From: a virus | Taxonomy: Duplodnaviria > Caudoviricetes | Direction: 5' to 3' (one strand) | IMG/VR virus record: IMGVR_UViG_3300037400_001134 | Span: 11,059 to 75,058 of that record | Length of the DNA: 64,000 nucleotides | Shown here: positions 1,186 through 57,900 of the stretch, one piece after another | How positions within the stretch are numbered: position 1 is the first letter of the stretch | Layout: each line of letters begins with the position of its first letter | Notes under the pieces: generated by a model | Told to the model about the DNA's origin: nothing | What the model saw: only the letters and a program-made list of their open reading frames with translations | The model's database searches: none | Position numbers and translations under genes: made by a program

Positions 1186-1283
1186 CAAATATGGCGACTT
1201 TCCAGCGTTTCCACTACATTTAATGATAAAAATATCAAGCGCACAAGTGGAAGCGCTGGAATCGTCTGTAAATGAGTTGATTA

Positions 1284-1325
1284 TTCCTGTTGAATCACAG
1301 TAGCGGATATATTACCTTATTAGTG
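1284..1325 (+). promoter_or_regulatory. early-class promoter P1 (TTCCTG-TTGAAT-17-TACCTT)
   Basis: -35 TTGAAT 1290-1295, 17 bp spacer, TACCTT 1313-1318; same architecture as three other copies. Confidence 0.65.
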
Positions 1326-1365
1326 TAGAGAACAACAACAGTTAGTTGAAAGGAGAAAACCTAAT

Positions 1366-1734
1366 ATGAAGAAGTTAACATATGAGAGTTCCGTAGCAGA
1401 GGTAAATAGAGTAGTAGCAGAGATTCGCCAGATTTGTGAGAGATACAACTTCTGGAACAGAGAAATACGCCCTTACTCTTGGAGAATGACAGTCCGTGAG
1501 CTAGTAGAGAGTGAAGGATGGAATAAATATAAGGCTTATACCTTATCATCAAAAGCCGTCATTCGCCAAGAGATAAACGGTTTTGTAGATATTCTTGAAC
1601 ACTGGGTAGCATATGAGAATGAACCTATGGTCAAGATTCACTATATAGCTGGTAGTAAAGTTGATATGATAGAGGAAGTACATGAAAGCCTTGCAGAGAT
1701 ATTCATTCAGGCACAGATGGCAGAGCTGGTGTAA
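1366..1734 (+). CDS. hypothetical early protein (122 aa)
   Basis: SD AAAGGAG after an A/C-rich leader. Confidence 0.8.
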   Translation: MKKLTYESSVAEVNRVVAEIRQICERYNFWNREIRPYSWRMTVRELVESEGWNKYKAYTLSSKAVIRQEINGFVDILEHWVAYENEPMVKIHYIAGSKVDMIEEVHESLAEIFIQAQMAELV

Positions 1735-1746: not shown

Positions 1747-1749
1747 ACA

Positions 1750-1797
1750 TTCCTGTTGATAAGGTACTGCCTGTGCAGTACCTTATTATTGTAAACA
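1750..1797 (+). promoter_or_regulatory. early-class promoter P2 with 12-bp inverted repeat
   Basis: TTGATA 1756-1761, 17 bp, TACCTT 1779-1784; ATAAGGTACTGC-CTGT-GCAGTACCTTAT perfect palindrome. Confidence 0.7.
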
Positions 1798-1828
1798 GAA
1801 ACACACATATGAAAGAGAGGACCCACAA

Positions 1829-2068
1829 ATGTTAATGATGTTAGAAGAAGTATTCCCGAGGCAGAATAGAATGAATGAGTATCCCATGGGGGAAGAGCAA
1901 GAGTTCCAGAGCATGAAAGAGTTTATAGACTGGAACATAGAGCAGATTGATGAAATCCTGAAAGATGCTCCAGAGGAGCAGATAACGAAAGACAAGCTGA
2001 CCAGCGGTGAATATACAGTCTATGAAAAAGATGGAATAATCTATGTAAGAGTGGAGGTAGAAGCATGA
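1829..2068 (+). CDS. hypothetical acidic early protein (79 aa)
   Basis: SD GAGAGGA; downstream of P2. Confidence 0.7.
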   Translation: MLMMLEEVFPRQNRMNEYPMGEEQEFQSMKEFIDWNIEQIDEILKDAPEEQITKDKLTSGEYTVYEKDGIIYVRVEVEA

Positions 2069-2474: not shown

Positions 2475-2476
2475 TA

Positions 2477-2524
2477 TTCCAGTTGAAAGGGTACTGCATG
2501 AGCAGTACCCTATAATTGTAGACA
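2477..2524 (+). promoter_or_regulatory. early-class promoter P3 with 10-bp inverted repeat
   Basis: TTGAAA 2483-2488, 17 bp, TACCCT 2506-2511; AGGGTACTGC-ATGA-GCAGTACCCT. Confidence 0.7.
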
Positions 2525-2557
2525 ACAACACACACATATGCGAAAGGAGATACCGAT

Positions 2558-2818
2558 ATGCAGAGAAGAAAATCATTATCCGAGAAGGATATCAGAACAG
2601 TTTTAGCCATCATTGAGAGCTAACGTGAACAGAACCATTATAACTATGAGGAGATGAACAGAAATATGGGCAGCCTTACAATCGAAGAGATGATGGCGCT
2701 AAATAAAAAGCTAGAAGATTGGTACCATAAAGATGATGTAGTAGATGAACTTGAGGATGTAGATATGGATGAATATAGGGAATCCTATAATGATTACATC
2801 CATTCATATATCTATTGA
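2558..2818 (+). pseudogene. 86-codon early gene interrupted by an in-frame TAA (2621-2623)
   Basis: Strong SD GAAAGGAG; MQRRKSLSEKDIRTVLAIIES*REQNHY...YIHSYIY continues in the same frame after the stop. Confidence 0.6.
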
Positions 2819-3509: not shown

Positions 3510-4045
3510 AGTGTATACCATATGTCAATCTGTAGAAATCAAAAAGAGGGCGGTATAAGAGTCCTGTCCATCTATACCAATTATTATAACCAAATACACT
3601 ACCATATATAATATCTAAAGAAACCATCTAAATACCATTGTTTAGCCATTTATGCCATGCCTTTATTTGGCTCGTATCTAGTGCCATTCAGTAGCCATCT
3701 AGCCATTTCGCTATTTCCATTCTTAGACCATATGCCCTACAACCCTAATCATATAGACTATCACTAGCCTATCACCCTGGTGCCGTCCGACAAGATTTGC
3801 AAGCTATTTTTCAATTTTTTAGTAAAAGGTTGCATTTTTTGTCATGCCTTTATAGGCCATTAGGGGCTATCCCAAACTCCCTCATTCCCTTTATGCATTT
3901 TGCACAAATGGCACCAGGCCATTAGCTTTGCAGTCCTCTTAGAGGTTTTAGCGGGCGTCCTTATGAGGGAAAAGTGCCGAAAAAAAGGGGGTTGGTATCC
4001 GACTGGAAAAAGCCCGCCAAAATTTGTTCGTCAAATTGCACAATA

Positions 4046-4085
4046 AACCTGTTGAATGGTTATAGGGGCTAGAGTACCATAAAAT
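4046..4085 (+). promoter_or_regulatory. early-class promoter P4
   Basis: CCTG-TTGAAT 4052-4057, 17 bp, TACCAT 4075-4080; ATGGT...ACCAT partial dyad. Confidence 0.65.
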
Positions 4086-4121
4086 AAAAAACAGCACACA
4101 CATGAAAGAGAGGAAACCAAA

Positions 4122-4343
4122 ATGACAAAAGCACAGAGATGGGACCATTTAGTAAAGAGATTTGAGAGCTTCACCGAATTACAGAGAAGGGACCTAGATG
4201 TAGAGAAGTGGGATGATGCTATAAACAAGATGTACGGATGGATAATCGCCGCATCAGAGTTCAATCCTGATTTAGAAGATGATATATCAACCCTTTGGAC
4301 AGAGACTTATAATAGGGAGTTTAAGCAGAGGTATATGAAGTAA
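4122..4343 (+). CDS. hypothetical early protein (73 aa)
   Basis: SD GAGAGGA; own promoter and terminator. Confidence 0.8.
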   Translation: MTKAQRWDHLVKRFESFTELQRRDLDVEKWDDAINKMYGWIIAASEFNPDLEDDISTLWTETYNREFKQRYMK

Positions 4344-4588: not shown

Positions 4589-4615
4589 ATTGTAAACAAT
4601 AACATTGTTTACAAT
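4589..4615. promoter_or_regulatory. palindromic operator-like site
   Basis: ATTGTAAACAAT-AAC-ATTGTTTACAAT perfect 12-bp arms; half-site TTGTAAACAAT recurs at 4701-4711. Confidence 0.6.
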
Positions 4616-4729: not shown

Positions 4730-4857
4730 GATATTGAGCTTCAATGAAGCGTGAGCTTTGAAGCGTGTTCTACATATTGCACTTTGACAAACATAGACAC
4801 TTACGTGTCTATCATATGGAAACGTAAATATCACAATATGAAACGGAGACAAGTATC

Positions 4858-5439
4858 ATGGAAAAAACAACTATTTTTAGCAACTATTCACTCAAGCAAG
4901 CAACATTCGATAACACAAACAAGCGTGTTGCAATGACAGACAAAGAGCTTGCAACGCTCAAAGCACTTTGCAAGACAAAAACGTTTGGTCTTGTATCGCT
5001 AATTGATGATATCGACAATATTGCAACGTTCAATGGTGACTACGATTGTAAACTAGCTCAAAGCGGAAACGCAAAAGAGCACACATTAGTTTCGATATGG
5101 AGTCGTAACGCTGTAAAGCACGTTACAAAAAAGAGCGATTATCGTGATTTTGGGGTTCGTTTTCACGTAGACAAGCTAGCAAAGCTTTATAGCAATAAAG
5201 ACTTTGCAAAGCTGATAAAAGATAGCAGCGTGCAAGTATACTCACATAAAGATGGATTAGAAATCAGATTTACGTTTAACACGTTGTCAGATGCTATCAA
5301 GTTTATAGCTGATATCGACAACGCAACAAAAGAGACTAGCAAAGCAAAAGAGCAAAAGAGCAAAGCAAAAGAGACTAAAGCAAAGCAAAGCAAAACAAAG
5401 TCTAAAGAGACTACAACAGAAAAGAGCATCACAGCATGA
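4858..5439 (+). CDS. proline-free, Lys/Thr-rich protein with basic C-terminal tail (193 aa)
   Basis: SD GGAG; no Pro in 193 aa; tail KETSKAKEQKSKAKETKAKQSKTKSKE; lies inside the CC/GG-depleted island. Confidence 0.85.
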   Translation: MEKTTIFSNYSLKQATFDNTNKRVAMTDKELATLKALCKTKTFGLVSLIDDIDNIATFNGDYDCKLAQSGNAKEHTLVSIWSRNAVKHVTKKSDYRDFGVRFHVDKLAKLYSNKDFAKLIKDSSVQVYSHKDGLEIRFTFNTLSDAIKFIADIDNATKETSKAKEQKSKAKETKAKQSKTKSKETTTEKSITA

Positions 5440-5876: not shown

Positions 5877-5905
5877 TGTAAAAATGACCGACTTTATGTT
5901 ATAGT
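5877..5905 (+). promoter_or_regulatory. promoter for the packaging operon
   Basis: TTGTAA, ~18 bp, TG-T-TATAGT extended -10; the ATGTTATAG motif recurs at several promoters. Confidence 0.5.
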
Positions 5906-5933
5906 ATGTTTACAGAAAGCGAGGAAGGATTTT

Positions 5934-12099: not shown

Positions 12100-12312
12100 G
12101 ATTTTGGGTGAGATGTTGATTTTGTCAATTCTGCCCTCCTACTGCCCACAGTAGTACACCCCGTTCTATTGTGGGCGCTAGATAATAACTCGATATGAGA
12201 TTATTATAAATAAGTCTTGTAGTCGGACATTTAAACGGCTACACATTCCAGTGTAGAAAGTGACTACACATTTAAACAATAAACTGATATAAGAATGTAG
12301 AAGGAGAAAAGT

Positions 12313-39288: not shown

Positions 39289-39393
39289 ATGTTGATACAT
39301 CCATTTGCAGCCGGTGTTTTAGCTACTCTCTTTATAGAGATGGCTTTTATACTTATTTATGCTTATATCACTTATAGAGGAGGAAAAAGATAA
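39289..39393 (+). CDS. small membrane peptide (34 aa), not in ORF track
   Basis: MLIHPFAAGVLATLFIEMAFILIY...; SD AAAGGA; TAATG overlap with the next gene. Confidence 0.6.
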   Translation: MLIHPFAAGVLATLFIEMAFILIYAYITYRGGKR

Positions 39394-39620
39394 TGGCTAA
39401 ATATGAAGTTAAAGGAAAAACTACAAAGATTATTGCTACTTCAAGATGTGCAGTAAAGATTAAGGATAATTATTACACAACCGAACTTTCAGCAGAAAGA
39501 GTATTACCAGAGAGTGATGATGTAGACCTCAATAAGGAGTATGAAGATTTATTCAACTCCATAAATGATGAGGTTGATAGACAGATGACAGATATTATAA
39601 ACACATTTGCAAGGAAATAA
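39393..39620 (+). CDS. hypothetical protein (75 aa)
   Basis: SD GGAGG. Confidence 0.75.
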   Translation: MAKYEVKGKTTKIIATSRCAVKIKDNYYTTELSAERVLPESDDVDLNKEYEDLFNSINDEVDRQMTDIINTFARK

Positions 39621-39661
39621 GTTCCTGTTTACACGCTAATCTAATCATGTTATAGTATGTA

Positions 39662-39772
39662 TTGTAAAGAGCAAACAAGTTCTCATGTTTCTTGTTTTTA
39701 CTTCTTTCATATTGTGTATGTTGTTTCTGTTGTTAGAAAGTAGCGTGAGCCTAGTGCTTGCGCTTCTTTCTG
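39662..39772 (+). ncRNA. candidate trans-acting antisense sRNA
   Basis: Promoter TTTACA(39628)-17-TATAGT; U-rich 5' part complementary to early-gene leaders; 3' hairpin AGAAAG-TAGCG-TGAGC...GCTTG-CGCT-TCTTTCT. Confidence 0.5.
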
Positions 39773-40019
39773 TATTGACAAATGTATATAAATATGTTAA
39801 TGTATATTTAGTCATTAAGACTTGATGCACATATTGAAAAGGAGTAGCTACCTTTAAAAATTTGTGCTACAATGAATAAGCCAGTTAATGTGCGCATACG
39901 TTGACTGACAATGTATAAACACATAATAACTGGCAAAGAGCTTGATATGATGAAGATGCGCCTTCTGAGTATCGAGCTTTTTTATTGCAAGAAAAGAAGA
40001 TTGTTGGGAGGATAATAAA

Positions 40020-40946
40020 ATGAAGGACACTAATTATTTTTCTGTTCAAGCTTGGATGGTTACAAAATTAAATCTAAAGGGTGCAGAGCGTGATATCTAC
40101 GCTATTCTATATGGATTCACACAGGATAATGAAAGCGAATGTAAATGTAGTTATACATATATGTCCACTATAACAGGGTATACAAAACGAGCAATAATGG
40201 ATGCTATGGACAGATTATTAGCTAAAAATCTTATAGTAAAGTCTGGTTCAGATTCAGATAGAGATATGAGAAACATCTATAAATGTAACTTTGATTATAT
40301 TGATGGAGTATTAAGAGGGGGTGAAGTAACTTCACCACTAGGGGGTGAAGTAACTTCACCACTTGATGCACTAGGGGGTGAAGTAACTTCACCACATAAT
40401 ATAAGATATATAAATAATATCCATAATAAAAGCACCGGAGACGGTGCTCTTTCTAAAAATCATTCTCAGGTTTATAAGAAAAGAGAAAGTCTAAATGATG
40501 ATTTAGAGAGTGGAAAAGATATAGACAAACAAAAGTCTGATAAAAGAAAATCTCCTAAAGACAAATTCAAAGATGAATGTTTAGATATTATAGAAAAAGA
40601 GTATTCAGATGAAACAAAGGATTTACTTATAGAATATTTTGATTTTGTTACGGCAGTTCCAGAAGATAAAAGTAATTTGTGTAAGCGTGTAAAAACAGTA
40701 AAGCAGTGGAGACATAAACTAGATAGATTAGATGATTTAGTTAAAGACGGCTATGATTGTAGAAAACTCATACAACAGAGTTTAGATAAAAAGCAGTATG
40801 TATTTTATCCATTACAATCAGTTCAGCAATATAAAGCAAAAAGAGGAGGCGAAACTTTATGTGATGAAATAGTTACTACAAATGTTGAAGAAGCACAAAG
40901 ATTATGGGATGAAGCTAAAAATAGCGGAAAAGGAGAATATTGCTGA
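40020..40946 (+). CDS. replication initiator (lambda O-like wHTH, with internal iterons)
   Basis: N-terminal YAILYGFTQD...SYTYMSTITG...LLAKNLI; iterons in the middle; upstream of a DnaC-like gene. Confidence 0.85.
   Translation: MKDTNYFSVQAWMVTKLNLKGAERDIYAILYGFTQDNESECKCSYTYMSTITGYTKRAIMDAMDRLLAKNLIVKSGSDSDRDMRNIYKCNFDYIDGVLRGGEVTSPLGGEVTSPLDALGGEVTSPHNIRYINNIHNKSTGDGALSKNHSQVYKKRESLNDDLESGKDIDKQKSDKRKSPKDKFKDECLDIIEKEYSDETKDLLIEYFDFVTAVPEDKSNLCKRVKTVKQWRHKLDRLDDLVKDGYDCRKLIQQSLDKKQYVFYPLQSVQQYKAKRGGETLCDEIVTTNVEEAQRLWDEAKNSGKGEYC
40316..40395. repeat. replication origin iterons, 3 x 23 bp
   Basis: AGGGGGTGAAGTAACTTCACCAC identical at 40316, 40340 and 40373; each contains the palindrome GGTGAAGT-A-ACTTCACC; followed by an AT-rich stretch. 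Confidence 0.85.
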
Positions 40947-46112: not shown

Positions 46113-46802
46113 ATGCGATTTGCGTATGAAGATGCAGACAAATTTGGGGGCGGTAGTGGAAACAGAATCAATTACCTCTCATTAAAAAATGATGGAGACA
46201 AAGCATTTGTGCATATTTTAGGAAATGATATGAATGATTTTCCTGGATATGCAGTACATAGAGTACCTATCGGAGATGGTCATAGATATGTGAACTGTTT
46301 GAGAGAAGCTGGTGCACCAATCACAGACTGTCCATTCTGTGCTGAAGGTAAGCATAATCCTGAAGTTAGCAGAGTTTATGCTAAACTCTTCTTACCTGTA
46401 TATGATTGTGATACAGATGAAGTAAAGATTTGGGAAAGAGGAAAGACATTCTTTAGAGACCTCGCAAGTTATTGTTCTCATAACCCTAATGTATCAGAAG
46501 TAGTTACAGAGATTGAACGTAGAGGTAAAGCAGGTGACACATCTACAACATATGGCCTCTATGCTACAAAAGAAGAGGATAACTTCAATATCGAGAATGT
46601 TAAGGAAGATATTCCAAATATTCTTGGTGATGTTGTTCTTGATAAGTCAGTAGAAGATATGGAATATTACCTTAGAAGAGGTGATTTCCCTAAAGATGAC
46701 TCTAACAATGATGGAGGTGTAACAAGAAGAGGCTCATCTGATAGAGATGATAGACGTACTCCTTCAAGAAGAGAAAGAAGAAGTGCGGAAGACGATTATT
46801 AA
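46113..46802 (+). CDS. ssb: single-stranded DNA-binding protein (start revised from 46050 to 46113)
   Basis: SD AAAGGAG; YLSLKNDGD, HRVPI...YVNCL...CPFC, VKIWERG; acidic/Arg tail ending AEDDY. Confidence 0.75.
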   Translation: MRFAYEDADKFGGGSGNRINYLSLKNDGDKAFVHILGNDMNDFPGYAVHRVPIGDGHRYVNCLREAGAPITDCPFCAEGKHNPEVSRVYAKLFLPVYDCDTDEVKIWERGKTFFRDLASYCSHNPNVSEVVTEIERRGKAGDTSTTYGLYATKEEDNFNIENVKEDIPNILGDVVLDKSVEDMEYYLRRGDFPKDDSNNDGGVTRRGSSDRDDRRTPSRRERRSAEDDY

Positions 46803-57679: not shown

Positions 57680-57741
57680 GCATAAATATGTTATAGAATG
57701 ATTACAGATATAAAAAATACGCATAAATGAAAGGAGAAGAA

Positions 57742-57900
57742 GTGAAACAGATATTAGAAGAATGGTCTGGCAAGTTTGAAGTTAATGGGGAAATTGATGT
57801 AAACCTCGATAATTTAAAAGTAAAAGATGGTGATGAATTTCATGTAAAGTTATTGTCCAAGAACAGAGAGGTTAAAGATGATTTACTGTCAGCCTACTGA
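57742..57900 (+). CDS. small protein (52 aa, GTG start), not in ORF track
   Basis: SD AAAGGAG; VKQILEEWSGKFEVNG... Confidence 0.6.
   Translation: MKQILEEWSGKFEVNGEIDVNLDNLKVKDGDEFHVKLLSKNREVKDDLLSAY

Follow-up and report, generated by a model that had tools for sequence, protein, structure and literature searches.

In the window analysed in this work (the whole stretch of DNA, 64,000 nucleotides, equivalent to bases 11059-75058 of a virus record of 75,058 bases), we located a discrete unit at positions 39663-39772 which, judging from its small RNA (sRNA) architecture, is very probably a real and conserved sRNA gene. At least 14 related phage sequences have kept both the unit and its core, and this core shows complementarity to the ribosome-binding regions of leaders that are repeated along the genome of the same phage. 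With moderate confidence, we read the predicted RNA as a multi-target antisense regulator acting in trans on the phage's own genes. The original prediction had put forward such a multi-target regulator; the part of it that held was a conserved discrete unit with an unpaired core complementary to many start regions around 30-40 kb away, beyond the level of composition-matched controls, whereas the arguments drawn from a 12-nt seed alone and from pairing with the AUG did not. The candidate target set was wider than the five leaders listed at first, since it comprised a whole family of promoter-leader cassettes (11 copies in the genome).

The predicted RNA unit and its conservation in related phages

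The sRNA locus is placed within a 400-bp gap extending from a 75-aa ORF (39393-39620) to an O-like replication initiator gene (40020-40946), the latter displaying PHROG replication-initiator matches. Every gene of the window is on the plus strand, as is the sRNA, opposite which no gene was present; with genes and sRNA on one strand, pairing by this RNA would only be possible in trans. The gap contained the following elements:

39622-39656, plus strand: promoter P1, found by consensus scan, with a TTCC-extended -35 block (39622-39633), TG at 39648-39649 and the -10 box TATAGT (39651-39656)
39663-39772, plus strand: predicted sRNA of about 110 nt, its start placed from the -10 box
39663-39709, plus strand: 5' stem-loop, from individual folds; a hairpin in every homologue, unconserved in sequence
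39701-39733, plus strand: anti-leader core CUUCUUUCAUAUUGUGUAUGUUGUUUCUGUUGUU, holding the sole conserved blocks of the sRNA alignments, mostly unpaired and predicted to pair with cassette leaders
39734-39772, plus strand: predicted intrinsic terminator hairpin with U-rich tail, with an inner hairpin at 39742-39764
39775-39803, plus strand: promoter P2 of the replication operon, TTGACA, 17 nt and TAATGT (TATAGT in relatives), strongly conserved in the alignment
39806-39995, plus strand: conserved structured leader or attenuator of about 180 nt, ending in a terminator before the initiator gene, from the alignment

The expected promoter TTTACA-17-TATAGT was borne out (39628-39656) and, in addition, the TG in front of its -10 box makes this a near-consensus extended -10. 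The hairpin anticipated at the 3' end was also found (39742-39764, extending to 39734-39772, with T-rich sequence behind it). In the window copy, the U-run of this terminator is weak because part of it sits in the stem. In agreement with the earlier statement that the unit holds no credible ORF, its only ORFs (28 and 46 aa) lacked a Shine-Dalgarno (SD) sequence and none was common to 11 homologues. The sRNA of the window folded with a minimum free energy of -26.7 kcal/mol (z = -2.9). A search of all 4227 Rfam families with cmscan left the sRNA without a match at gathering score, and relaxing the threshold to E values of up to 10 (positions 39550-40080) added no relevant one.

Compared with the helicases of Clostridium, Bacillus, and Streptococcus phages, that of the present phage showed identities of no more than 48% (43-46% for the closest full-length matches), and the nearest relatives of the phage were uncultured IMG/VR and metagenome contigs. 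Zero matches to the sRNA locus were obtained by blastn against 50,697 phage records, and neither a relative nor a prophage copy was found in species-representative bacterial genomes. The marker protein adjoining the sRNA locus had 524 homologues in metagenomes, thus indicating that this phage family is abundant there and that it offers ample covariation material. Four whole or nearly whole genomes contained both the sRNA and its candidate partners, namely G000 (the present phage), G001, G002, and G003.

The sRNA unit was kept in 13 related contigs (L001, L002, L003, L005, L006, and L025 from IMG/VR; L033, L036, L037, L043, L045, L049, and L050 from metagenomes), in the same place in all of them, directly after the 75-aa ORF and before the replication initiator gene. 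The layout of P1 was the same in the 13 contigs, with TCCTGTT(G/T)A as the -35 block, which P1 has in common with the promoters of the cassettes. The 5' stem-loop was present in every homologue, with a different sequence in each lineage. A terminator appeared in 12 of the 12 contigs whose 3' end is present (L045 stops before it), and consisted of 10-17 bp plus a U-run, followed by the second and better conserved promoter P2; most of these terminators were strong (12-17 bp with 5-8 U). The predicted RNAs of the homologues measured 83-114 nt, with z values of -5.3 to -6.3 against shuffles. RNAalifold predicted no structure on MAFFT alignments of the whole sRNA or of the terminator because the hairpin sequences were too divergent, so that individual folds and a hand-given structure were used instead. 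With this hand-given structure on the MAFFT alignment of 13 sequences, both-side changes were obtained in 10 of the 14 pairs of the terminator stem, and the covariation score was reached by none of 500 shuffles. Conserved sequence was confined to the middle of the sRNA (CUUCUUUCA, 2-13 nt, and GUGUGUGUU, that is CUUUC(A/G), a variable spacer, and GUGUG(U)). This core was more unpaired than the remaining RNA in 10 of 12 folds, its mean unpaired probability ranging from 0.5 to 0.95 in most homologues. The unit was not found in the distant relatives L027/L039/L040, L041, L042, L048, and L051, where a single promoter and a different structured leader occupy the position.

Complementarity between the core and the leaders of phage genes

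Cassettes consist, in this order, of ATTCCTGTTGA, a short variable hairpin ending in TACCTT or TATCCT, TTGTAAACAAnAACACAC, 3-12 variable nt, UGAAAGGAG, and ATG, and they head runs of small genes without recognisable function. By means of an nhmmer profile built from the 11 copies of G000, 15, 13, and 7 copies were counted in the other three genomes (46 cassettes over the four genomes). A pattern scan of IMG/VR for cassettes returned chance matches only, outside G001 and G002, and a simple regular expression for a second anti-leader locus found none. Four of the 11 G000 cassettes are held in the window; they are given here along with the leader of a 193-aa gene, which is not a member of the family:

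1283-1368, plus strand: cassette and leader of gene 1366 (nhmmer E = 1e-15; predicted duplex -22.3 kcal/mol)
1749-1831, plus strand: cassette and leader of gene 1829 (nhmmer E = 1e-17; predicted duplex -25.9 kcal/mol)
2476-2560, plus strand: cassette and leader of the small ORF 2558 (nhmmer E = 5e-16; predicted duplex -26.7 kcal/mol)
4045-4124, plus strand: cassette and leader of gene 4122 (nhmmer E = 2e-10; predicted duplex -21.9 kcal/mol)
4815-4860, plus strand: leader of the 193-aa gene 4858, with a 12-nt exact complement at 4832-4843

Read as reverse complement, the core corresponds to the two blocks conserved in the cassette leaders, AACACAC and UGAAAGGAG, and both blocks were matched in the right order and spacing. 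In the four genomes, the reverse complement of each sRNA was collinear with the cassettes of its own phage, from the hairpin through AACACAC to GAAAG. The pairing already proposed for leaders 1366, 1829, 2558, and 4122 was real as far as prediction goes, with the energies listed above. RNAduplex gave duplexes of 25-33 nt and -16 to -31 kcal/mol between the core and the cassette leaders, these energy models leaving proteins out of account. Comparisons of the whole sRNA with 60-nt windows by RNAduplex were inflated and uninformative, and were replaced by duplexes of the core alone, by a local score of pairing, and by cofold ddG. In none of the four genomes did any of 300 dinucleotide shuffles attain the mean core-cassette duplex energy (RNAduplex), and cassettes paired far better than the remaining 80-124 start regions (Mann-Whitney p = 8e-7, 2e-7, 4e-7, and 6e-3). 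When intramolecular structure was included, mean cofold ddG was -23.2, -14.5, -20.5, and -14.0 kcal/mol in the four genomes vs. -14.5, -5.7, -9.0, and -9.5 for core-shuffled sRNAs, the observed value being reached in 0, 0, 0, and 2 of 40 trials, respectively. The original prediction had raised the question of whether the pairing is any better than that of composition-matched shuffles, and the leader set did beat them, both with RNAduplex (0/300) and, in three of the genomes, with cofold ddG (0/40).

The possibility that each sRNA tracks the cassette leaders of its own phage found no support in a 4 x 4 cross matrix of sRNAs and cassette leaders, in which no preference for own vs. foreign leaders occurred. 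This indicated that pairing rests on blocks conserved throughout the family, one of them being simply an anti-SD. Several non-cassette start regions scored on par with cassettes, some of these apparent non-cassette partners being cassettes missed by the first regular expression. In a strand test on 38 combinations of sRNA and leader, the real RNA duplex was more stable than the mirror duplex in 30, the mean difference being 2.9 kcal/mol; the few sRNA positions behind this count are shared by descent and amount to few independent events. Mismatches are thus mostly G-U on the transcribed strands and not A-C. The excess was mainly due to the fact that no sRNA has the perfect anti-SD CUCCUUUC (0 of 14 cores) and most have U opposite the G of the SD. 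The nhmmer profile of the cassettes left the sRNA locus undetected on the minus strand at E up to 1, with only the leader part aligning, and this strand showed neither a cassette-type -35 block nor a start codon after the SD-like block. The core may have originated in evolution as an inverted cassette, without being a live one.

The 193-aa gene occurred only in G000, G002 (88% identity), and a few short contigs. Its leader provided the 12-bp match of the original prediction, which was found to be exact, as the window contains CACAATATGAAA in exactly two places, namely 4832-4843 (plus strand) and 39705-39716 (minus strand), but was not significant genome-wide (p ~0.12; 117 of 1000 dinucleotide shuffles of the sRNA gave a perfect complement of at least 12 nt to some start region). 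The reverse complement quoted for 39679-39716 was correct. An extension of the pairing to the AUG of gene 4858 was unsupported, the part of the sRNA involved (39679-39695) being located in the 5' stem-loop and unconserved in sequence among relatives. Considered as a single pre-specified match, that of the 193-aa leader was reached by 3 (G000) and 6 (G002) of 5000 shuffles. Between this leader and its own sRNA, read as reverse complement, the common stretch is CACAATATGAAA (12 nt) in G000 and ACACACTATAT (11 nt) in G002, with the central position of the seed changed on both partners between the two phages, and own pairs displayed -26.5 and -28.1 kcal/mol vs. -22.4 kcal/mol for both cross pairs. 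A third leader type (L032, L110) has ACACACAATTTTGTA, and L043 was the only sRNA with a matching spacer (reverse complement ACACACATTTTGTA); the sRNA of L043 gave -24.6 kcal/mol with the leader of L032 vs. -14.6 kcal/mol with the other two leaders, L043 and L032 being separate contigs of one sample, both ~80-87% identical to G002 and only presumed to belong to one phage. Seed-target covariation amounted to one clear compensatory pair (G000/G002) for the 193-aa leader plus this presumed third lineage, and to none for the cassettes. On this thin evidence, the data suggest that the 193-aa leader matches its own sRNA via lineage-specific letters.

Proposed function, alternatives, and known systems

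In the mechanism that we propose, the strong sigma-A-type promoter P1 would make a trans-acting base-pairing sRNA of ~110 nt, which a terminator of its own would end immediately ahead of the replication-operon promoter. The single-stranded core would act as an anti-leader, its GUGUGUGUU block pairing with AACACAC, close to the leader's 5' end, and its CUUCUUUCA block with the ribosome-binding site UGAAAGGAG. Its partners would be the leader of the 193-aa gene 4858 and the cassette family, whose 11 copies each stand at the head of several small genes. By pairing, the sRNA would mask the SD and block 30S binding, possibly creating in addition a substrate for a double-strand RNase, and would presumably turn down many phage genes together. 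As P1 combines the cassette-type -35 block with a consensus extended -10, the RNA may switch on together with, or ahead of, its targets.

A broader interpretation, possible rather than probable, is that of a 'master anti-leader': about 10 cloned cassettes placed before some 30 small genes, and one sRNA whose core mirrors the shared leader and whose promoter P1 bears the cassette -35 block, might set the translation of the whole gene class and of the CC/GG-free-island gene in a feed-forward circuit, with co-evolution of sRNA and leaders across an uncultured phage family. If true, control in trans of a whole class of its own genes by a phage of virulent type would represent a new layer of phage developmental timing, would explain the uniformity of the cassette leaders, and would constitute a compact natural switch in which one RNA acts on many genes.

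Other explanations of the same unit were considered. The sRNA could be real and its GU-rich anti-SD core could serve another partner, either host mRNAs with A/C-rich leaders or a core-binding protein, the match to phage leaders being then a by-product of generic leader composition. We regard this as unlikely, although it carries some weight: the cassette leaders lack lineage-specific tracking, many non-cassette start regions pair well through the anti-SD block, and no prophage copy was found in species genomes. Against it, the cassette leaders were strongly enriched over other phage start regions, both of their blocks were matched with order and spacing preserved, and the 193-aa leader matches its own sRNA in lineage-specific letters. 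Somewhat less probable is a feature acting at the level of DNA, such as an inverted and decayed cassette leader kept by chance or the site of a protein that also binds the cassettes, with promoter and terminator merely insulating the upstream operon from the replication operon. The flanks (5' hairpin and terminator stem) have diverged beyond alignment with the two core blocks kept, mismatches favour G-U on the transcribed strand, and the cassette profile misses the minus strand of the locus, which has no -35 block and no start codon, all of which speak against a DNA feature; on the other side, alignment of the reverse complement with the cassettes runs all the way from hairpin to SD, which is what an inverted duplicate should show, and the motif TTGTAAACAA at the start of cassette leaders is also palindromic at 4590-4614, which hints at a DNA-binding regulator, but the TGTAAAC motif is absent from most sRNA loci.

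The location of the unit, which immediately precedes P2 and a second structured leader that contains a terminator, would also suit a role of P1 as upstream promoter of the replication operon, with the 110 nt as a first attenuated leader segment acting in cis by read-through into P2 and the initiator gene; the single promoter and one structured leader of distant relatives, and the weak U-run of the window copy, point in the same direction. This is nevertheless improbable given the strong terminators of most homologues (12-17 bp, 5-8 U), the consensus -35 and -10 boxes that P2 has of its own, the lack of a conserved alternative (antiterminator) pairing, and a core that is complementary to distant leaders and to nothing in the leader of P2. 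No conserved pairing between the sRNA and the P2 leader was seen by eye among relatives. Chance complementarity of low-complexity T/G-rich and A/C-rich sequences, devoid of function, would fit the A/C-rich composition of the leaders, a caveat raised already in the original prediction, and a 12-nt match that lies within chance genome-wide; it is very improbable, being disfavoured both by the shuffles, as the observed pairing was never reached by dinucleotide shuffles in three genomes and in 2 of 40 trials in the fourth, and by conservation of unit and core in at least 14 lineages.

The predicted regulator is not a member of any described family, as it has no Rfam match, is not cis-antisense, and is not encoded in its target operon. 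In Firmicutes, the trans-encoded sRNAs RoxS/RsaE and RNAIII pair with the SD through pyrimidine-rich unpaired motifs. They resemble the present sRNA in the stem-loops flanking an unpaired anti-SD motif, the intrinsic terminator, and the several targets contacted at the ribosome-binding site. In contrast, those sRNAs are chromosomal, C-rich (UCCC/CCCC), and regulate host metabolism, whereas the present one is phage-borne and U/G-rich, bears a second block against AACACAC, and has the repeated leaders of its own phage as best predicted partners.

The C4 antisense RNA of phages P1/P7 (~77 nt) is phage-encoded and pairs with the ribosome-binding region of the phage's own mRNA without being simply the opposite strand of its target (PMC12197685), a mode resembling that proposed for the present sRNA. 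However, C4 arises by processing of the leader of its own target operon and acts on that one operon (ant), whereas the present sRNA has a promoter and a terminator of its own and, as candidate partners, 7-15 repeated leaders located 30-40 kb off. Membership of the C4 family was ruled out by the lack of a match to its Rfam covariance model and by the location of the sRNA outside its target operon. Lambda OOP and P22 sar are likewise short phage RNAs, each equipped with a promoter and a terminator of its own; they down-regulate genes of the phage, and OOP adjoins the replication initiator gene O in the same way as the present sRNA adjoins an O-like gene (PMC12197685); both are cis-antisense and transcribed from the strand opposite to the target, unlike the sRNA described here. 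The prophage sRNAs DicF, PreS, and VpdS act in trans by base pairing on several targets, those documented being host mRNAs or host sRNAs (PMC12197685), whereas conserved complementarity to leaders of its own phage was found for the present sRNA. Documented phage sRNAs are mainly cis-antisense or host-directed (PMC12197685).

Neighbouring elements and other observations

In the leader located downstream of P2, the loop of a hairpin and the loop nested in the terminator changed together in eight relatives (GCGCAT/ATGCGC, CGGCAC/GTGCCG, AGGCAC/GTGCCT, and GGGCAT/ATGCCC), which suggests a kissing-loop or antiterminator switch. No Rfam family matched this leader, either at gathering score or at E up to 10, thus making it a candidate riboswitch-like attenuator. 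The initiator gene itself contained a perfect 24-bp direct repeat in two copies (GGEVTSPL twice; 40316-40363) and an array of AT-rich 9-mers (40396-40428); by analogy with lambda O, these repeats are probably origin iterons. A promoter class defined by its -10 box and initial transcribed sequence TGTTATAGTATGTTTA was found at 5897-5910, 39648-39665 (P1), and 39795-39812 (P2); it is used at P1 and P2 and before the packaging and structural genes, with two to three sites per relative.

The promoter spacers of the cassettes (1283-1330, 1749-1795, 2476-2522, and 4045-4090) contained a hairpin of 8-10 bp, different in sequence in each copy. The TACCTT/TATCCT -10-like box is formed by the 3' arm of this hairpin, with T-rich sequence behind the arm, an arrangement that looks like an overlapping terminator and promoter. 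One cassette per phage presented, in place of the short A/C-rich leader, a long, conserved, and apparently structured one (..AGAGTAAG..GATGCTGA..), which may be another cis-regulatory RNA. These long-leader cassettes were located at genome position 9823 of the present phage (outside the window; L030:9823-9925), and at 46561 in G002, 34490 in G001, and 4604 in G003.

Upstream of the 193-aa gene, a palindrome (TTGTAAACAAT / ATTGTTTACAA) at 4590-4614 contains TTGTAAACAA, as do the initial bases of the cassette leaders; this palindrome may serve a DNA-binding regulator as its operator. The leader of gene 57742 (57700-57745 in the window; ACGCAUAAAUGAAAGGAG, with a TATAGA-type promoter upstream) and that of its G002 orthologue both ranked near the top of the predicted sRNA partners outside the cassette family. 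A GP20-a RNA motif (Rfam RF02991, 68 bits) was found at 12210-12310, upstream of gene 12313.
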